From Actinospica sp. (GTDB lineage Bacteria > Actinomycetota > Actinomycetes > Streptomycetales > Catenulisporaceae), in NCBI GenBank assembly GCA_035493475.1, contig DATJIF010000029.1, positions 102,163 through 126,162 on the forward strand: a stretch of 24,000 nucleotides of DNA, given 5' to 3'. Shown here piece by piece: positions 110 to 18,225 of this stretch (positions are counted from its first letter, which is position 1; each line of letters starts with the position of its first letter). Below the pieces are notes generated by a model. The model saw only the letters and a program-made list of their open reading frames with translations, was not told the DNA's origin and did no database searches. Made by a program: the position numbers and the translations under genes.

Positions 110-1513
110 TTGGGCGTGTCAGATCGGCGGCATGTGCACAATGTGCGGATGGACTTGTTTGATCTCGATGCGGAGCCTGAGGAAGTGCTCGCTCATCCGA
201 GACAGCAGGCGGCGTTGGTGCGGATCGCGGTTTTGATCGGTCAGCTGCGCGCGTGCTCGAACATCGAGGACGGGTATGCCTTTCAGCAAGATCTTCTGGG
301 CTGCATCCTCGAAGTCGAGCGAGACTTCAACGGGCTGAGTAGGGCCGTTAAGCGGATGGCCGCCGGAAAACGGCCACAGCAGGATGCCCCTGAACCACAA
401 TCGGACCGAGACCGGGCTGACCTCGCCACGTGGCGGCTGGAGCGAGACATTTGCCAGCGGGTTGCCCGGCAGTACCGATGTGTCGGTGATGCGCTGGCGT
501 GGCGAGTCTTCGGGTTCGAGCGGCAGCACATCCTGGCGTTGTCCAGGAGCCAGGACTCGGGTGTGATGGCGGACAAGCTTGGGCTGCAGCGCGAGATCGA
601 AGCTGCCGACGAGGCGTATCGAGATGGGCGGTTCGCGCTTCTGCACGATTTGACCAACTGCCTCCGCATCGGCGACATCACCTACTTCAACGAGGACGGG
701 CCACTCACACGCGAGCTCAAGACCAACGAGATGAAAGAGGAGCGCAACACTCCGCAGACTCGTCGTGTGAAGGCCGCACGGCGTGCGATCGGCGGTAGGG
801 CGCCGCTTCCTGGAGACAACCCGTGTGAGCGCCTGTACGACCTGCGTATCCCGTTCAAGGCGCATTTGGGGGTACTCGCCGATGGCCTCGATCGCGCGGT
901 CACGCAGGGGATCTTCACTGCTTGTGTTCCCGGTGATCGGACCCTCCTGGTCATGGACCTCGGCGGCGTCCAAGCGAAGGGGTGGAGCGTGGACGACTTC
1001 CACGAACGACTGCGCAGGAAAATGGCGGCTGTCCGGCGGCGAGCGCACTTTTCCGTGGGCGACGAGTGGATCATCAACGCCACCAGCCTCGATAGCGTAT
1101 CGCGTGACCCGCTGCGGGTGCCGTTCGCGGCCTACCCGTTCCATCCCGCGCTTTGCACTCGCCTGATCGGAGACATCGCCAGCTTCGTCGTTGAGACCCC
1201 TGGGCCAGCACTGGCGCAGTCGCTGCGTGACGCCGGCCTCCATGCGGCGTGGACTCGGCCTGGAACAACTGCGGATCTGAAGCCTGGCGAGGTCGTCATG
1301 AAGATTACGTCGGTCAACCGAGTCCCGCATGGCCGTGGGATCATGGAAACCACGCGGACACTCGAGATGCGGCGCTCGGAACTTGAGCGCTACCTGATGG
1401 AGTTCATTGAGCAGGCTACGTGGATCGAAGGCATGAAATCGTTGATCGCCGAGCCACGCGCCCCGGGACGGCCGTGGCCGCATTACCGCGATGAGCACCG
1501 GGTATGGCGATAG
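110..1513 (+). CDS. hypothetical protein with PD-(D/E)xK-like nuclease motif
   Basis: 467-codon ORF with TTG at 110 directly after an in-frame TAA; the first ATG is at 149. Third codon positions are G/C-biased and the amino-acid composition is balanced. The equally long antisense ORF 119..1498 is Arg/Pro/Ser-rich and looks like a shadow ORF. The motif RIGD(189)ITYF-x11-RE(202)LK(204)T (nt 665-721) fits D...(D/E)xK. No family recognised by eye. Confidence 0.6.
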   Translation: MGVSDRRHVHNVRMDLFDLDAEPEEVLAHPRQQAALVRIAVLIGQLRACSNIEDGYAFQQDLLGCILEVERDFNGLSRAVKRMAAGKRPQQDAPEPQSDRDRADLATWRLERDICQRVARQYRCVGDALAWRVFGFERQHILALSRSQDSGVMADKLGLQREIEAADEAYRDGRFALLHDLTNCLRIGDITYFNEDGPLTRELKTNEMKEERNTPQTRRVKAARRAIGGRAPLPGDNPCERLYDLRIPFKAHLGVLADGLDRAVTQGIFTACVPGDRTLLVMDLGGVQAKGWSVDDFHERLRRKMAAVRRRAHFSVGDEWIINATSLDSVSRDPLRVPFAAYPFHPALCTRLIGDIASFVVETPGPALAQSLRDAGLHAAWTRPGTTADLKPGEVVMKITSVNRVPHGRGIMETTRTLEMRRSELERYLMEFIEQATWIEGMKSLIAEPRAPGRPWPHYRDEHRVWR

Positions 1514-1561: not shown

Positions 1562-4342
1562 TCACAGCCAGCCGAGCTGCTTGAGGTCGATGCTCAGCCA
1601 TTTGTAGGCCAGATTGGTTGCGGGTGAGTGGTCGTAGACATCGAGCGCGCCGGTCTGAGCGCCTCCGGCGGCCGCGAATGCCGCTGCAGTGACGCCGCGC
1701 GGGATCAGCCGAGTGAGGTTTCGTGCACGCGGTACCGAGGAGTGGCTCTCGTGCCACTCGTGTTCGGCGACTTGGCGGATCGTCACGTGCGGCGTGGCGA
1801 TGACTGAGCCGGGGGTGAGCGGCTGATCTGTGTCGAGATTATGGTCGGGGTCGAGCGCGCTGAATGTGTAGTCGAGAAGTGGTGAGCCCTGGAAGCCGGA
1901 CTTGTCGCTGGTGATGAGCGTTCCCTCGACCTTGGGCTGGCCCAGTGCGGCAAGGCTGAGCGTGCGTCCGATCCGGGGGAAGTGGTCGGCGACGAGCTGG
2001 CCGTAGCCGAGCAGGGCCTCGCGCCAGACCGATTCAGTCAGCTCGCGCAACCGCTCAGGTGAGTAGGCGTGCCAGACCCAACCCCGATCCCGATAGCCGG
2101 GTGGATTGTCTGGTGCGGGAGCGGGTCTGCGCAGTAGTTCTCCGCGACCGACGAGTTGTTCGCAGCGGCTCGCGAGGTGGTGGAGTTCGTTCAGGCGACT
2201 GGTCGTTCCGTCGGTTGACCTCATTGCGATGAAGTTGCCGTCGATGCTGGCTTCCGCGATCTCGATTGCCCTGAGGACCACGGCGGGATCGATTGGCTGG
2301 TGGTTGGTGTTGCCCTGCCCGACCACGAGGCATGCCAGGTGCCAGTCTCGTTCCGCAGCGAGATGACTGCCCGGGCGTACGAGAAGGGAACGCCGCTCGA
2401 TCAGAGGTTTGAGTTGCATGACAATGTGCTCTGCGGTCCACTGCCATTGCCAGTTGGCGCGGGACGCGACGTGAGCAGTACTGCGGGACGGCCCCCAACC
2501 AGGTCTTCCGATCAAGGGTCGGATCGCCTCCAGTTCCGGAGGCGCGTGCGAAGGGTTCAGGCAGAAAACCTCCGGCAGTTGGCTACCCGCAGCAGCCCAG
2601 CACGCTTCGAACGTCCCGTCCACTGAGAGCCCCACGCCGAGGGAGCGAAGCGTCCCGTCAGGAGCGTCGAAGAGAAGAAAGTGGCGCAGTTCCCGCAGCC
2701 CGTTGAGCCACGCGCTCATTGCGTTTCGCACGGCGCGCCCGGCACTTAGCGTCGCCTGCGCGGAGGCAGGTGCGTGGGGTTGAGGCGTCGAGTCTTGTAC
2801 CTGCGTTCCAGAACCCTCACGGACCCGGTAACCGGAGACCGTCAGTGCTTCGCGAACCAGCCAGCTGGCGAGTCCGGGGTGGGCGCGCGCCATAGGGTCG
2901 AGCAACTGGTCGGCGGCTATCTCCGGATTCGTGGCAAGCGCGACCGCGATCGGGTAGCGCCAGGTTACCGCAGCTGAGAGGTCACTGACGATGTCGTCGA
3001 TGGGTACTTCACGGTGAGTGAGCGCCTCAGCGGCGAATACCTGCTCAAGGATTGCGAGTGGGAAGCGTAATTCGCCATATTGGCCTTCAGCGAGGATGCG
3101 GGAGGCTACCAGGTCTCCGCCAAATGCGATGTCGCTCGCGCGAATCTGGACGCCATTGGTTGCCGCGATGGCGATGCGCCGCAGCGTTGCGCGGACCTGT
3201 TCCCGCACCACTACTACCCCTGTGCGCCCGGCAACTGCCTCAAGGGCGCGTTCCGCGAGCCTGTGTAGGAGCGAAGGTCGGTCCGCGAGGTCGGAAAGGG
3301 AGGCGGCCTCCGCGCCGATCAGGACCGCTAGCAGTGGAGTGCGCGCCGCCTCGGCTAGTTCGGGAGTGAGCCTGTGGGCCATCTGCCATTCGGGGATCTG
3401 CGCGATGGAGGAGGCGATTTCGATGCCGCGTTCGAGAGTCAGTTCCGTGATCGGAACGATCTCACTGGTGGGTACCGGGTAGCCCGGTCGGATCGTCGCC
3501 ACGACGCGGACGTTTCCAGCCGACTCAGCGAAGACGGCTGCCTCATCGAGGAGTTCGCGTACGCGGCGCAGGTCGTTGATCGCGTCCAGTTCGTCGAGTA
3601 CGAGATCGCAGCCGAGCGAAAGAAGGTGTTCCTCACCACCGCACGCTTGCGCAACCATTTCAGGGAGCCCCCGCTGGGTTGCGCGTGCGGGCATCCATAC
3701 CGGCACGGGCCCCGCACCACCGGCGTACGTGTCGATCGACGAACGGTGCCAGATCTCGGCGATCTCGCTCTTACCCGTGCCAAGTTCCCCGACTAAGACG
3801 AGGATCCGGCCGGGCTCAAGCGTGATCAACGGGCTCGGAAGCTCAGTGGCCGACAGCGCGTCCAGAGCACGTAGCAGCATCGTGTCGTCGTCGACGATGT
3901 TACGGAGCCTCCGACGCGTGCGAGTCTCGGAGATCCGCCGGAGACTGTCAGCATCAGCCGGAACGCCGCGGGATGCCAACCAGCGCGGCATCTGTGTCTG
4001 ATCCCGAAGGACCCGCGCCTGCGCGTCACGTTTCCACCGGTGTAGGAGATCGACAACGAACCGCTGCTCGTCAGCGTCGATCAGCTTGCTGCAGGTCTGG
4101 CACAACCAAATGCCATTGGCCTGCGCAGCTCGCTCTTCTGCCGATAGCGACTTGTCATAGCGAGGGCCACCTTCGGCCGCGGCGGTGATGTGCGCCGCCA
4201 CACCGATATTGACAGCCTTCTCCGGGTCTTGAGCAGGGCCCGAAGTGGGCTTTTGGCAGACCGGATTGCTGCACCGATGACCCACGCGCCGCGCGAGCAT
4301 GGTTTTCACGAGCGCGGAGAAGTCATCGCGCGGGTTTGACAC
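1562..4342 (-). CDS. HNH nuclease fused to P-loop STAND/NACHT-like NTPase with long helical C-terminal region (Avs-like single-gene defence candidate)
   Basis: 926-codon ORF with GTG start at 4342. The N-terminus has HRCSNPVC...AAHI...NGIWLCQTC, a Cys4 HNH-type nuclease signature (nt 4058-4282). Walker A is GELGTGKS (nt 3767-3790), Walker B is DLVLDELD, followed by VVATIRP (sensor-1-like). About 600 aa of alpha-helical-looking sequence follow. Confidence 0.85.
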   Translation of the reverse strand: MSNPRDDFSALVKTMLARRVGHRCSNPVCQKPTSGPAQDPEKAVNIGVAAHITAAAEGGPRYDKSLSAEERAAQANGIWLCQTCSKLIDADEQRFVVDLLHRWKRDAQARVLRDQTQMPRWLASRGVPADADSLRRISETRTRRRLRNIVDDDTMLLRALDALSATELPSPLITLEPGRILVLVGELGTGKSEIAEIWHRSSIDTYAGGAGPVPVWMPARATQRGLPEMVAQACGGEEHLLSLGCDLVLDELDAINDLRRVRELLDEAAVFAESAGNVRVVATIRPGYPVPTSEIVPITELTLERGIEIASSIAQIPEWQMAHRLTPELAEAARTPLLAVLIGAEAASLSDLADRPSLLHRLAERALEAVAGRTGVVVVREQVRATLRRIAIAATNGVQIRASDIAFGGDLVASRILAEGQYGELRFPLAILEQVFAAEALTHREVPIDDIVSDLSAAVTWRYPIAVALATNPEIAADQLLDPMARAHPGLASWLVREALTVSGYRVREGSGTQVQDSTPQPHAPASAQATLSAGRAVRNAMSAWLNGLRELRHFLLFDAPDGTLRSLGVGLSVDGTFEACWAAAGSQLPEVFCLNPSHAPPELEAIRPLIGRPGWGPSRSTAHVASRANWQWQWTAEHIVMQLKPLIERRSLLVRPGSHLAAERDWHLACLVVGQGNTNHQPIDPAVVLRAIEIAEASIDGNFIAMRSTDGTTSRLNELHHLASRCEQLVGRGELLRRPAPAPDNPPGYRDRGWVWHAYSPERLRELTESVWREALLGYGQLVADHFPRIGRTLSLAALGQPKVEGTLITSDKSGFQGSPLLDYTFSALDPDHNLDTDQPLTPGSVIATPHVTIRQVAEHEWHESHSSVPRARNLTRLIPRGVTAAAFAAAGGAQTGALDVYDHSPATNLAYKWLSIDLKQLGWL

Positions 4343-4506: not shown

Positions 4507-7494
4507 ATGCGCCCACGTGGCGGACTGAGCCGGGAGGAAGCCGATCGTCTCGACCAGGTCCGCGGACACACGGACCCGGACAACGAGACCTGGACCAGCG
4601 TTTACGACCTGCGCGGCCGCGTCACCGAGAAGGAAGACCCCACCGCCGGCAACTCGTTCATGGCCTACGACCCGAACGGCAACCTCGTCCAGTCCGAGGA
4701 CTCCCGCAGCAAGTACATCTCCTACGTCTACGACAAGCTCGGCCGAACAACCGCCGAATACGCCGCCCAAAACGTGGCCGCCGATCAGACCGCAGGGCCG
4801 AGCGGCACTCAGATGTACCAGTGGTACTACGACAACAGCAACCATGCCATCTCCGGGATGACCAATCCGATCGGACAACTGACCACCCAGACCACGTACG
4901 CGAACGGCGCCACCTACACCGAGCAGACAGCCGGGTTCAACATCTTCGGCGAATCTCTCGGCGAAGAGATCATCATCCCGTCCACTGTCACTGGGCTCGC
5001 CGGCACCTACACGATCACGCACACCTACACCACGTACACGGGCCTGCCGTTCAAGGACACCTACTCCAGCTTCGGCGGCATCAACAGCGAAACCACCGAG
5101 CACAGCTACAGCGGACTGTTTGACAGTCCCAGCGAGCTGGCCGACGCGAACTATGGCTACGCCCAGTACGTCGACTACGACGCGTACAGCCGCCCCACTC
5201 AGGAGCAGATCGGCGGATCCACCGGCACCGCCGAGATCACCAACACCTACGACGTACACACCGGAAGCCTGCACGAGCAGAACATCTCGCGCCAGACCGC
5301 CACCCCCACCGCCGTCGACGACACCGTTTACACCGACGACCCGTCCGGCAACATCACCCAGCAGACTGAGACCCGCCTCGGGTCCTCCAGCGACACCGAA
5401 ACCCAGTGCTACCAGTACAACGGTCTCGACCAACTCAACCAGGCCTGGTCCGCCACCGCCGCCTGCACCACGGCACCGACCGCGAGCAACGTCGCCAACA
5501 CCCTCGGCACGGGCAGCGCCTACTGGGACTCCTGGACCTTCAACAACGAAGGCGACCGTACCGGCCAGACCCAATACGCCATCGGCACCGCGACCACCAA
5601 CACCACCACTACCTACACCTACAGCAGCAGCCAACCCCACACCCTGGCCAGTACAAGCACCACCGGCGGGACCACCGCCAACACCAGCTACGGATACGAC
5701 ACTGCCGGCAACACCACCGGCCGCACCACCCCGACCGACGGCACCCAAACCCTGAACTGGAACAACGCCGAACAACTCGCCTCTGTCAACACCACCACGG
5801 CAGGCACGGCCAACACCGCCGGAACCAGCAGCTACGTCTACGACCCCTCCGGCAAACTGCTCCTGCAAATCACCCCGACCGCCACCACTGTCTACTTCGA
5901 AAACGAACAAGCCACCCACAGCACCAGCAACGGCGCAGTCACCGGCATCCGCTACCTCGCACTCCCTGGTGGCGGCACGGCCGTGCGCACCGGCAACACC
6001 ACCAACTACACCTTCGAGATCACCGACCAGCACGGCACCGCCGACCTCGACCTCGACTACACCTGCCAAACCCCCACCTGGCGCCAATACGACCCTTACG
6101 GCAATTCTCGCGGCGCTACCGCCACCTGGGTTGACAACCGGGGATTCCTCAACGATGTCAACGACACCAGCACCGGCATCACCGACATCGGAGCCCGTTG
6201 GTATGACGCCAGCCTCGGAAGGTTTGCAAGTCTCGATCCCGTCTTCGAAGCGTGGGACACCCTAGCTCTCGGCGGCTACACCTACACCGACGGCAACCCC
6301 GTTGGCGAAGCGGACCCGACGGGTCTTATGCTCCCCTATGGCAAGGCGGCCAGCGACGGGTGCACCACCCAGGCGCAATGCAATTCAGATGTCGTGCAGT
6401 ACAACAAAGAAGTCCTCAGGAACGCAATCACCGAAGCGGGCTGGGACGAGCAGACGGAATGGCACGCGCGAAAGATAGCTGCACAGTATCGCTGCGGCGG
6501 AATCAGCACCGATACCAACTGCGGAACACTGAGCTGGCAACAAGAGCACGAAATCCAGTACAAGTACACTCAGCAGCTCGAGTTACTTCAGAACGAACTC
6601 CTTAAAATCGACAACACCCTCTGGCCCGGGCTCGCCGGCTGCATAAACGGCAACCAGAACGGCGACTGCGTTCCAGCCGTAGCGACCGGCATCACGTTTG
6701 CCAGTGGCGCTGCGGAAGACGACGGCACGAACGCACCCGCCTGCGGAGGAGACAGCTTCACGGCCGACACGAAGGTCCTCACCTCTACGGGCAAGACAGT
6801 GCCGATCACCTCGCTCAAGGTCGGCGACAAGGTGATATCGGCCAACACCACGACCGGGAAGAACCAAGCTGAAACCGTGGACGCAGTCCTTGTCCACCAC
6901 GACACAAACCTCTACAACCTCACCGTCGAGACCGGCCACGGCATCGAAGTCATCCACGCGACCGCCAACCACCTCATCTGGGACCTCACCCAGCACGCCT
7001 GGATCCAAGCTAGCAAGATCCACAAGGGCGACCGGCTCCTCACGGAGAATGGCGCTACGGCAACAGTGGACGGCGGCAGCGCTCCCGCCGACCAAACCGG
7101 TTGGATGTGGGACCTCACCGTACACGACCTGCATGCGTTCTACGTGTTGGCGGGCAACACGCCGGTCCTCGTGCACAATGCCGGTGGTGCGGCCAACTGT
7201 CTTATCGGCCAGCAGGGTGAGGCGGCGTCTGGGATCACCAAGAACACGCGGACGATCATCATCAATGGGCGGCCGCGCATCCCAGATGAGCTCGATCCGG
7301 CTGCGGGTATCATTGGTGAGGTGAAGAACGTGAAGTATCAGTACCTCTCGACCCAGCTGAAGGACGACCTGTCGTATGCGCAAGCGAACGGCTTTCAGTT
7401 CAATCTATATGTGAATAGCGCGACTCAGCTCTCCAGCCCCCTTCAGTCCCTGGTTGACTCAGGGCAGATCAACCTCATCAGGAACATTCCATGA
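4507..7494 (+). CDS. Rhs/YD-repeat polymorphic toxin, N-terminally truncated (Rhs core + PT-HINT + REase-fold toxin)
   Basis: 995 aa. YD repeats occur throughout (YDLRGRVTEKED, YDPNGNLVQSED, YVYDKLGR, YGYDTAGN, YVYDPSGKLL). The Rhs core end is DPYGNSRG...GARWYDASLGRFASLDPV...DPTGLM (nt 6313-6330). An in-frame TAG sits two codons upstream of the ATG (4501-4503). No signal or secretion domain is present. Confidence 0.9.
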   Translation: MRPRGGLSREEADRLDQVRGHTDPDNETWTSVYDLRGRVTEKEDPTAGNSFMAYDPNGNLVQSEDSRSKYISYVYDKLGRTTAEYAAQNVAADQTAGPSGTQMYQWYYDNSNHAISGMTNPIGQLTTQTTYANGATYTEQTAGFNIFGESLGEEIIIPSTVTGLAGTYTITHTYTTYTGLPFKDTYSSFGGINSETTEHSYSGLFDSPSELADANYGYAQYVDYDAYSRPTQEQIGGSTGTAEITNTYDVHTGSLHEQNISRQTATPTAVDDTVYTDDPSGNITQQTETRLGSSSDTETQCYQYNGLDQLNQAWSATAACTTAPTASNVANTLGTGSAYWDSWTFNNEGDRTGQTQYAIGTATTNTTTTYTYSSSQPHTLASTSTTGGTTANTSYGYDTAGNTTGRTTPTDGTQTLNWNNAEQLASVNTTTAGTANTAGTSSYVYDPSGKLLLQITPTATTVYFENEQATHSTSNGAVTGIRYLALPGGGTAVRTGNTTNYTFEITDQHGTADLDLDYTCQTPTWRQYDPYGNSRGATATWVDNRGFLNDVNDTSTGITDIGARWYDASLGRFASLDPVFEAWDTLALGGYTYTDGNPVGEADPTGLMLPYGKAASDGCTTQAQCNSDVVQYNKEVLRNAITEAGWDEQTEWHARKIAAQYRCGGISTDTNCGTLSWQQEHEIQYKYTQQLELLQNELLKIDNTLWPGLAGCINGNQNGDCVPAVATGITFASGAAEDDGTNAPACGGDSFTADTKVLTSTGKTVPITSLKVGDKVISANTTTGKNQAETVDAVLVHHDTNLYNLTVETGHGIEVIHATANHLIWDLTQHAWIQASKIHKGDRLLTENGATATVDGGSAPADQTGWMWDLTVHDLHAFYVLAGNTPVLVHNAGGAANCLIGQQGEAASGITKNTRTIIINGRPRIPDELDPAAGIIGEVKNVKYQYLSTQLKDDLSYAQANGFQFNLYVNSATQLSSPLQSLVDSGQINLIRNIP
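6742..7179 (+). other. Hint (intein-like, pre-toxin HINT) domain inside the Rhs protein
   Basis: CGGDSFTADTKVLTSTGKTVPITSLKVGDKVIS ... HAFYVLAGNTPVLVHN. It has an N-terminal Cys and a C-terminal His-Asn, as in Hint/intein autoproteolytic modules that release polymorphic-toxin tips. Confidence 0.8.
7180..7491 (+). other. C-terminal toxin tip, restriction-endonuclease (PD-(D/E)xK) fold, Tox-REase-5-like
   Basis: 104 aa follow the VHN cleavage motif: GQQGEAASG...RPRIPDELDPAAGIIGEVKNVKYQYLSTQLKD...AQANGFQFNLYV. The PD...E-x-K arrangement and overall pattern resemble REase-fold polymorphic toxin domains. The family assignment is from memory only. Confidence 0.6.
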
Positions 7495-8237
7495 CGGGTG
7501 AGAATAGCTCTAGCGTGAATTCCGGGCGGTTGACGCACAAGCAAGCTGTCGAGAAGGCGCTAAGCGACCCAGTGGCGCGCGCGGCAATTGCGAGTGATCC
7601 GCGTGTGGCTCAACGGCGGCAACTCTATGCGGAGAGTGCGGCAGGATTGCTCGCTGAACTGGCCGACCTGGGCTTCCGTGTCGAGAGCGTCGGCGAGCTC
7701 GCCCGTCAACGCATGAAGTACGAGGCAGCGGTACCGGCTCTGCTCAGGTGGCTTCCTCGAGCGACGTATCTACCGCTGGCCGAGGATATTGTTCGGACGC
7801 TCTCTGTCACCTTCGCAAAGAAGCGGGCATTGCCAGAGTTCTTGAAGTTCTTCCGCTGCCCACCGGACGTGGAAGACCCGATGCGCCCAGCAACCTCAGA
7901 GCCAGCCAGCGAGCATCTCCGTTGGGTCGTCGGTAATGGGTTGGGTATATTTGCAGGGCCTTCAGTTGCTGACGAGCTCATTGAGCTCGCCCTCGACAAA
8001 TCGTTCGGTCAGGCACGAACGCAGATCGTCCTTGCCTTGCCGAAGACGAAAGATAGCAGGGTGGGCGATGTGCTGATTGAGCTTCTCGACGATCCCACTG
8101 TTTGTGCATTCGCCATTGAGGCGCTTGGAAAGACGAAGATCGTCGCAGCCGAAGGGTCGATCGAGAGACTTCTCGACCACCCGGATAAGAATATTAGAGA
8201 CCAAGCCAAGAGGGCTCTTAAACGTATCCGAAGCTGA
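7491..8237 (+). CDS. HEAT-repeat protein, probable cognate immunity protein of the Rhs toxin tip
   Basis: The ATG at 7491 overlaps the Rhs TGA (ATGA, 7491-7494). 248 aa. C-terminal HEAT/PBS-lyase-like repeats (DSRVGDVLIELLDDP, AIEALGKT, SIERLLDHPDKNIRDQAKRALKRI). It uses more A/T-ending codons than its neighbours. Confidence 0.75.
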   Translation: MTGENSSSVNSGRLTHKQAVEKALSDPVARAAIASDPRVAQRRQLYAESAAGLLAELADLGFRVESVGELARQRMKYEAAVPALLRWLPRATYLPLAEDIVRTLSVTFAKKRALPEFLKFFRCPPDVEDPMRPATSEPASEHLRWVVGNGLGIFAGPSVADELIELALDKSFGQARTQIVLALPKTKDSRVGDVLIELLDDPTVCAFAIEALGKTKIVAAEGSIERLLDHPDKNIRDQAKRALKRIRS

Positions 8238-17505: not shown

Positions 17506-18225
17506 TCAATCCGAATCGAGGATCTTCTCCCGCACGGCGTACATGACCGCCTCCATCCGGGAGTGCAGTTGGAGCTTCTCCAGGATGTTGCGGACGTGGT
17601 TCTTGACCGTGTTCTCGCTGATGAACAGGGTCTTGGCGATCTTGCTGTTGTTCGCGCCGGTGGCGATCAGCTTGAGCACCTCGAGCTCGCGGTCGGTCAG
17701 CTTCGGCGCGGGCGGGCCGGGGTTCTTGCGGTCCTCGCCATGCCGGACCATGGTGGCGAACTCGGTCAGCAGCTTCGCCGCCATCGGCGGGGAGATCAGC
17801 GACTGCCCGCCGACCACCGCCCGGATCGAGTCGGCGATCTCGTGCGGCAGCACATCCTTGAGCAGGTAGCCGCTCGCACCCGCCTTGATCGCCTCGTACA
17901 GGTCCTCTTCGTCCTCGCTCATGGTGAGCATCACCACGCGGGCGCTCGGCGCGAGGTCCTTGATCGCGGCAGCGGCCTCGATCCCGCCGCCGATCCCGCC
18001 GCGCGCCGGCATCTTCACGTCCAGCAGCACCAGATCCGGCAGCAGCTCCCCGGCCTTGGCCAACGCCTCCCCGCCGTCCCCCGCCTCGCCGACCACCTCG
18101 ATGTCCGGCTCGGTCTCCAGCACGGTACGCAGACTCAGGCGCATCAGGGCGTGGTCGTCGACGAGCAGAACCCTGATCGGCTCGCCGCGCTGCGCCGTCG
18201 CCGGCCCGGGCCGAGTCTCGGCCAT
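17506..18225 (-). CDS. NarL/LuxR-family two-component response regulator
   Basis: The ATG at 18225 is preceded by GAGGGAGGGG. 239 aa. The receiver domain has IRVLLVDDHALMR...DLVLLDVKMP. The C-terminal LuxR HTH has LTDRELEVLKLIATGANNSKIAKTLFISENTVKNHVRNILEKL. Confidence 0.9.
   Translation of the reverse strand: MAETRPGPATAQRGEPIRVLLVDDHALMRLSLRTVLETEPDIEVVGEAGDGGEALAKAGELLPDLVLLDVKMPARGGIGGGIEAAAAIKDLAPSARVVMLTMSEDEEDLYEAIKAGASGYLLKDVLPHEIADSIRAVVGGQSLISPPMAAKLLTEFATMVRHGEDRKNPGPPAPKLTDRELEVLKLIATGANNSKIAKTLFISENTVKNHVRNILEKLQLHSRMEAVMYAVREKILDSD

Follow-up and report, generated by a model that had tools for sequence, protein, structure and literature searches.

Domain organization and coding frame

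A stretch of 24,000 nucleotides from Actinospica sp. (contig DATJIF010000029.1, positions 102,163 to 126,162; the window below means this whole stretch) carries a gene at 1562-4342 on the minus strand, whose 926-amino-acid product (P0001) is the subject of this analysis. It is probably an abortive-infection defense gene. The reading that we favor, with some reservation, is that the protein works alone as an NLR-like immune switch, belongs to a divergent STAND clade related to NACHT, and would act by destroying DNA. The product consists of an HNH nuclease domain, a STAND NTPase, and a C-terminal domain presumed to be the sensor. This three-part plan of effector, NTPase, and sensor, put forward in an earlier reading of the sequence (the original prediction), was confirmed. 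The case for a defense role is made from genomic context and protein architecture. The features of the gene are listed below, with their basis in brackets; AF2 denotes the AlphaFold2 model.

1562..4342, minus strand: whole gene, with HNH effector, STAND NTPase, and C-terminal alpha/beta domain (list of open reading frames, translation)
3998..4330, minus strand: HNH (His-Me finger) nuclease domain, residues 5-115 (PADLOC, PDB, PHROG)
3836..3997, minus strand: helical linker between HNH domain and NTPase, residues 116-169 (AF2 helices H131-147 and H153-164)
3443..3835, minus strand: nucleotide-binding domain, residues 170-300 (conserved motifs in 43 members)
3767-3790, minus strand: Walker A, GELGTGKS, residues 185-192 (coordinates checked)
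3584-3607, minus strand: Walker B, DLVLDELD, residues 246-253 (coordinates checked)
3485-3496, minus strand: sensor-1, TIRP, residues 283-286 (coordinates checked)
2786..3442, minus strand: helical HD1/winged-helix/HD2 arm, residues 301-519 (Foldseek, hhalign, column counts)
within 3323-3340, minus strand: PL motif, P336-L337
3029-3070, minus strand: motif of the winged-helix domain (WHD), LRFPLAILEQVFAA, residues 425-438, with Leu429 replacing the NACHT histidine
1565..2785, minus strand: C-terminal 407-amino-acid alpha/beta domain, presumed sensor, residues 520-926 (AF2 model)

The frame at 1562-4342 is uninterrupted and contains 926 codons and a stop codon, as seen in the list of open reading frames and the translation. 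The start codon is GTG; homologues already align with the protein at residues 5-15 and a GGGAG precedes the codon closely, both of which support this start. The nearest relative is located on a metagenome contig (L011:1331-4117, plus strand) and has a full frame of 928 amino acids with 74% identity. The ratio of nonsynonymous to synonymous substitutions (dN/dS) for this pair was 0.20 overall; the HNH domain, the NTPase, and the C-terminal domain had values of 0.10, 0.17, and 0.26, respectively. The intact frame and the overall dN/dS showed that the gene is real and under purifying selection. The database protein P0002 (886 amino acids) is a shortened gene call: its frame opens 42 codons earlier at a GTG, and the extension gives 928 amino acids with a complete HNH N-terminus.

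The proposal that a single gene makes up the unit agreed with the data. There is one open frame, and since the neighbors differ at every homologous locus examined, the gene was regarded as a single-gene unit. The predicted motifs were found in their claimed places: the four cysteines (C24, C29, C81, and C84), H51, Walker A at residues 185-192, and Walker B at residues 246-253. An AF2 model of the whole protein was built on the 43-member family alignment, with a predicted local distance difference test score (pLDDT) of 86.9 and a predicted template modeling score (pTM) of 0.79. Structure prediction had been suggested as a check on the folds, and the model showed the HNH metal finger and, compared by Foldseek, the STAND fold.

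The STAND NTPase switch

The P-loop core of P0001 contains Walker A, Walker B, and the sensor-1 arginine, and is followed by a helical and winged-helix extension, as in STAND proteins. In the 43-member family alignment, G188, G190, and K191 of Walker A are invariant. Walker B has the form hhhD-G-L-D-E in most members, and D250 and D253 are present in 40/43. Sensor-1 is T-x-R285-P286, with R285 in 40/43 members and P286 nearly invariant; P336-L337 is invariant or nearly so. The linker residue R141 is nearly invariant across the family. The family WHD motif is L-x-F-x-L-P-I-L-E-Q-W-F-A-A, which reads L-R-F-P-L-A-I-L-E-Q-V-F-A-A in P0001.

Single-sequence searches with P0001 gave little for this region. 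Pfam returned weak P-loop matches only, with no NACHT match at E<=1; the NCBIfam scan of the whole protein gave nothing useful beyond weak P-loop matches or none; and the sequence-profile search of PDB gave only HNH and generic P-loop matches. The fold was more informative. In the Foldseek search of the model against PDB, the best match was NLRC4 (1.5e-6), followed by Dark, NLRP7, NLRP2, NRC4, and NAIP5. These structures outranked the AAA+ proteins Orc/Cdc6, clamp loaders, and DnaA, and the alignments with NLRC4, Dark, NLRP7, NRC4, and NAIP5 covered 430-600 columns.

The relationship to NACHT was investigated by profile comparison. Alignment by hhalign of family residues 170-520 with the NACHT region of P0003-P0008 gave a probability of 97.5% and an E of 7.2e-12 over 313 columns, extending from Walker A through the winged helix to HD2. 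Within this reference set, P0005 passes Pfam NACHT with 27.1 bits against a gathering threshold of 26.7. Pfam NACHT (PF05729) matched 13/43 family members at E<=0.01, the best at 5.6e-7; when nine relatives were scanned singly, all five NACHT matches were below gathering, at 16-19 bits against 26.7. By this profile comparison, the module is a STAND NTPase of the NACHT lineage, consistent with the STAND assignment made in the original prediction.

Two signatures of NACHT are absent from P0001. The NACHT Walker B signature is D[GAS]hDE, and a histidine of the WHD (NLRC4 His443) in F-x-H-x-x-x-Q-E-F-x-A-A is considered "defining" (Kibby et al., bioRxiv 10.1101/2022.07.19.500537). P0001 has D250-E-L-D-A at Walker B. 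The residue after the Walker B aspartate is Gly in 29/43 and Glu in 6/43 members, and the final Glu of the signature is present in 25/43; by these counts, D[GAS]hDE is ancestral to the family and lost in the P0001 subclade. In the column of the WHD histidine, 42/43 members have Leu and the remaining one has Ile; hhalign places F427-x-L429 on F-Q-H. Because of Walker B D-E-L-D-A and the WHD Leu, the module is termed divergent NACHT-related rather than strict NACHT. NLRC4, bNACHT25, and bNACHT16 all become constitutively active when this His is replaced by Leu (Kibby et al., bioRxiv 10.1101/2022.07.19.500537), so the family must hold its resting state by other means.

The HNH head

The HNH domain was matched by PADLOC models over residues 8-113, with values from 4.9e-23 to 1e-10. 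The best were PDC-M68A (4.9e-23), the CBASS "Effector Endonuclease" (6.4e-16), and SAVED_HNH (2.7e-15); SduA was found at 1.8e-6. Every matching PADLOC model aligned through its HNH part alone. PHROG 29098 also matched the domain (1.3e-26). The best solved relatives were PDB 9om4 (E 5e-6), 7rwm, and 8ysq. The first was deposited as an HNH endonuclease, and its citation was found in the SPARHA paper only; 7rwm and 8ysq were deposited as SAVED-domain proteins and aligned via their HNH portions.

In the AF2 model, strands 47-51 and 77-81 together with helix 82-90 make up a beta-beta-alpha metal finger. The Zn site ligands are C24, C29, C81, and C84, the general base is H51, the conserved Asn is N76, and the metal ligand is D89. 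The general-base His, the Asn, and the four-ligand Zn site are those of Cap5/SPARHA-type HNH domains. PsCap5 uses His56 as its general base, and its catalytic Mg is bound by two residues of the helix, His91 and Asp95 (PMC12141522). The alignment equivalents in P0001 are H51, S85, and D89, and of the two protein ligands of the catalytic metal, the Asp is kept and the His is replaced by Ser85. The Cys4 HNH module of the original prediction was thus upheld in its Zn site and HNH assignment (PADLOC PDC-M68A, PDB 9om4), and corrected in that the last His of the H-N-H triad is Ser85.

The S85 column was compared in 94 related HNH domains, of which 64 have Ala, 14 have Ser, 7 have Gly, and 9 have His. 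With Ala, Ser, or Gly in 85/94, the loss of the helix His is a clade trait. The Asp four residues after this column was demanded by the search pattern of the 94-sequence set, and its presence there is not independent evidence. A low dN/dS, together with intact H51, N76, and D89, speaks for a functional HNH domain.

The C-terminal domain

The original prediction described about 600 amino acids of helical C-terminal sequence, which was not supported. About 220 amino acids (301-519) form the switch arm, and residues 520-926 are mixed alpha/beta and globular. Modeled alone with 50 sequences, residues 520-926 gave a compact mixed alpha/beta fold with a pLDDT of 91.6 and a pTM of 0.91. This domain, which is restricted to the family, is presumed to be the sensor.

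The sensor had been described as unmatched to any class, and the searches agreed: no fold relative was found in PDB or BFVD. Foldseek gave no significant match against PDB (best E 0.37, probability 0.02) or BFVD (best E 0.034, probability 0.12), and Pfam, NCBIfam, PADLOC, and PHROGs contained no model matching the domain. The conserved residues are W633, E664, W667, P740, D745, Y780, and W915-L916-x2-D919-L920, the last within a C-terminal W-L-x2-D-L-x3-G-W. The domain is joined to the same NTPase type in all 80 representatives. The mean pairwise identity was 24.6% for the C-terminal domain and 30% for the NTPase.

Family distribution and exchange of heads

An exhaustive phmmer search against 1.84 billion representatives returned many proteins of 800-1,040 amino acids that aligned from about residue 130 to the C-terminus with 25-33% identity. 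The NTPase and the C-terminal domain were both present in at least 80 of the 150 matches listed. The family spans at least 80 clusters in Actinomycetota, Bacillota, and Cyanobacteriota. The N-terminal heads of the relatives are HNH, TIR_2, SEFIR, DUF4062, PNP_UDP_1, alpha/beta hydrolases (DUF676/PGAP1 type), DUF4365, and NNH5. As judged from these alignments, the N-terminus is a swappable cassette, with the switch and the C-terminal domain kept. The set of heads is the effector repertoire listed for bacterial NACHT defense proteins (Kibby et al., bioRxiv 10.1101/2022.07.19.500537).

Plasmid-borne members were found by tblastn in Rhodococcus, Kitasatospora, Microbacterium, Priestia, Niallia, and Nostoc; their annotation is "hypothetical" or the name of the head. 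A search of 50,697 phage records returned no homologue. The C-terminal domain was found in 1/300 other sampled genomes of the phylum, by a search whose sensitivity is limited at 25-30% identity. Neither the architecture nor three plasmid protein accessions led to the family in the Kibby et al. supplementary table, and no clade number was assigned.

A second copy with the same architecture is present in the source genome. This protein (P0013) has 927 amino acids and 30% identity to P0001.

L002:1474-4257, equal to G000 contig C63:139829-142612, minus strand: P0013, the 30%-identical paralogue

Immediately downstream of P0013 is an ApeA-like HEPN gene (ApeA_NTD1 1.1e-13, HEPN_Apea 1.3e-7). A DUF6009 gene and a DnaB-like gene are nearby (L006), and the surroundings look like another mobile or defense region. 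A distant member, P0012 (L005:2368-5409), has a head of about 300 amino acids with no Pfam or PADLOC match, which may be an unrecognized effector. A HEPN-domain gene is located 3 kb downstream of P0012.

Comparison with known systems

The bNACHT proteins (Kibby et al., bioRxiv 10.1101/2022.07.19.500537; domain catalogue of Kaur, Burroughs, and Aravind) combine, like P0001, an N-terminal effector, a NACHT-homologous STAND module, and a C-terminal sensor within a single chain. Their listed effector types include HNH, and the relatives of P0001 carry NNH5, TIR, PNP, and hydrolase heads. Unlike bNACHT proteins, P0001 has no Pfam NACHT match, has D-E-L-D-A at Walker B and the family-wide WHD Leu, and ends in a domain that matches no named NACHT C-terminal domain in Pfam.

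The HNH-NACHT-NCAB2 proteins (P0003-P0008, about 1,430-1,490 amino acids) share the same N-terminal HNH subtype, followed by a NACHT-type switch. However, their NTPase has 17% identity to that of P0001, and they are 500 amino acids longer and end in NCAB2. The same HNH also heads TPR-STAND proteins, and the identity of the P0001 head to both NACHT-NCAB2 and TPR-STAND heads is 47-64% over about 110 amino acids. As the NTPases are remote and the C-termini unrelated, the shared HNH looks like an exchanged effector cassette.

Cap5 (HNH-SAVED) and SPARHA HNH-APAZ (PDB 7rwm, 7rwk, 8fm1, and 9dif; 9om4) share with P0001 the HNH subtype, the Zn site, the general-base His, and the Asp ligand. Their tetramerization by a sensor provides a ready model for a STAND-driven version. 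Unlike them, P0001 lacks both SAVED and APAZ, is not paired with a cyclic-nucleotide or Argonaute partner, and has Ser in place of PsCap5 His91. P0001 does not qualify as CBASS Cap5: the SAVED_HNH and Effector models align via the HNH domain only, and no CD-NTase gene was seen in the window.

The original prediction placed the gene close to Avs. The Avs/AVAST systems (Avs1-5; extended Avs7-21, 10.64898/2026.01.04.697583) share the tripartite effector-STAND-sensor logic and the location in defense islands. Avs nuclease effectors are activated by target-induced oligomerization, and by analogy an equivalent is proposed for P0001. Unlike Avs, P0001 has a NACHT-related NTPase and a compact alpha/beta sensor in place of TPR-like helical repeats. 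The helical-repeat sensor of Avs, which binds phage terminase or portal, is therefore not found in P0001, whose C-terminal domain is alpha/beta. No Avs or bNACHT-type model matched P0001 in PADLOC-DB 2.0.0 at E<=1, where only HNH-domain models aligned (residues 6-118). The effector-NTPase-sensor plan was thus borne out by sequence, fold, and head swapping, and Avs membership was not, given the NACHT-related NTPase and the lack of a PADLOC Avs match.

A survey from 2026 distinguishes 589 clades of STAND proteins and 684 clusters of sensors (10.64898/2026.01.04.697583). The HNH-NACHT-like-sensor architecture class is already catalogued, and the gain from this gene is in details rather than in a new principle. 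What sets it apart is an orphan alpha/beta fold at the C-terminus, a WHD Leu throughout the family, and an HNH helix without His. NLR-type switches are common to bacterial, plant, and animal immunity, and the ADP-contacting WHD histidine is treated as defining. A conserved cross-phylum family without this histidine is a natural experiment on how such a switch is held and triggered. The family adds to the known settings in which the Cap5/SPARHA HNH serves as a DNase activated by assembly. It is also one more candidate single-gene defense system for actinomycetes, in which phage defenses are poorly sampled.

Proposed mechanism and alternative explanations

The domain identities, the STAND fold, the conserved catalytic and nucleotide-binding residues, purifying selection, head swapping in the family, and the location in mobile or conflict regions come from the data above; the defense role, the trigger, the oligomeric state, and nuclease activation are inferred. 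The proposed mechanism starts from a closed monomer as the resting state. The C-terminal alpha/beta domain would bind a signal of infection, for which a protein of a phage or another mobile element is the likeliest candidate and a host factor a possible one. The NTPase module would then be freed, bind ATP, and oligomerize. Oligomerization would cluster the N-terminal HNH domains and lead to indiscriminate double-strand DNA cleavage. Clustering would be expected to activate cleavage because the HNH domains of Cap5 and SPARHA are switched on by tetramerization, in which a shared double active site is formed, and are active only as such tetramers (PMC12141522; PMC12738770). The outcome would be destruction of the invader DNA, suicide of the infected cell (abortive infection), or both.

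Several observations weigh against the immune-switch reading. Resting NLRs hold ADP with a WHD histidine, for which the family has Leu, so the resting-state mechanism of NLRs is not directly transferable. The HNH domain has Ser85 in place of the helix His that holds the catalytic Mg in PsCap5, and by analogy its activity could be weak or differently organized. The C-terminal domain is nearly as conserved as the NTPase and does not diversify as rapidly as some bNACHT sensors are reported to do. No PADLOC defense model covers the NTPase or the C-terminal domain. The neighborhood evidence is anecdotal, and two plasmid contexts contain no defense genes.

The family may be an undescribed NLR-like lineage that is gated differently, with a fixed WHD His-to-Leu change and a compact, conserved alpha/beta domain instead of repeat sensors, possibly serving as a clamp and possibly sensing a conserved small molecule or host factor rather than a variable phage protein. 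This is a tentative proposal with perhaps a modest chance of being right. If true, it would mean a second way to gate NACHT-type switches and a new sensor fold in prokaryotic innate immunity. It is rather improbable that the same switch serves conflict between mobile elements and not phage defense, as in exclusion of incoming plasmids or integrative and conjugative elements, or in addiction that stabilizes the island or plasmid carrying the gene, with the HNH domain destroying competitor or host DNA upon threat to the element or its loss. The presence of the gene on plasmids, in transposon-rich regions, and in an integrase-bearing island beside an Rhs pair is consistent with such a role, as is the lack of homologues among the phage records. 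However, TIR, SEFIR, PNP, and HNH effectors on a STAND plan are the phage-defense NLR-like set, phage-defense genes are typically borne on mobile elements too, and no conserved cognate antitoxin or immunity partner is adjacent.

It is improbable that the HNH domain is catalytically impaired and acts as a DNA-binding or assembly module in a non-nucleolytic, ATP-dependent regulator or scaffold. Ser85 at the position of the Mg-coordinating His of PsCap5, with Ala, Ser, or Gly there in most of the HNH clade, would fit this explanation. However, His51, Asn76, Asp89, and all four Zn ligands are kept, and no other part of the protein is under constraint as tight as that on the HNH domain (dN/dS 0.10). 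The HNH clade is also fused to other immune-type partners (NACHT-NCAB2 and TPR-STAND), and relatives carry obvious enzymes at the same architectural position. Other His-Me nucleases operate with a single protein metal ligand, which also weighs against impairment. A housekeeping or signaling STAND NTPase with no conflict role, such as a regulator of transcription or development in a filamentous actinomycete, is very unlikely. Not all STAND clades are tied to defense (198/589 are called defense-associated; 10.64898/2026.01.04.697583), and the C-terminal domain is conserved rather than hypervariable. However, the head is a nuclease and not a DNA-binding helix-turn-helix domain, and relatives carry toxic effector heads. 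The distribution is patchy (1/300 genomes) and lies in low-GC islands (GC, guanine plus cytosine) and on plasmids, and the two divergent paralogues (30% identity) are found in different mobile contexts.

Genomic surroundings

The gene had been placed in an island with other conflict genes, and the surroundings agreed with this. The island in the window contains an Rhs (Tox-REase-7) toxin with its HEAT immunity gene, a tyrosine integrase, a TIR protein, helix-turn-helix proteins, and NLR-like genes. GC content is 60-68% over roughly the first 17 kb of the window and rises to 70-74% past position 18000 (the last 6 kb). Since GC is lower in the island than in the flanking DNA, the conflict-gene region looks horizontally acquired. 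Upstream on the contig, GC reaches 70% about 6-10 kb ahead of the window.

The neighbor on the upstream side of the HNH-STAND gene is the Rhs toxin gene.

4507-7494, plus strand: Rhs-repeat/PT-HINT/Tox-REase-7 toxin gene

A 248-amino-acid HEAT-repeat gene overlaps the stop of the toxin gene and is likely its immunity gene. The pair (4507-8237, plus strand) is divergent from the HNH-STAND gene, with a gap of 164 bp. On the other side, an orphan 467-amino-acid open reading frame at 110-1513 (plus strand) is convergent with the HNH-STAND gene, with a gap of 48 bp. Its codon-position GC favors the plus strand, and its sole match is PHROG 14906 (function not assigned; E 8.5e-6). This frame was rejected as a partner: it is unrelated to the ApeA-like gene beside P0013 and is absent beside the nearest homologue. 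The minus-strand frame 119-1498 was rejected as a downstream gene by codon-position GC.

The plasmid surroundings of relatives in three phyla contain insertion-sequence elements, a Tn7-like transposon, toxin-antitoxin genes, CHAT, caspase, and NACHT genes, and a Shedu gene. DUF3800 genes are located about 2 kb from members on two unrelated plasmids, of Priestia and Microbacterium (L012:9190-10374 and L016:3098-3784), which may be coincidence or a loose association.

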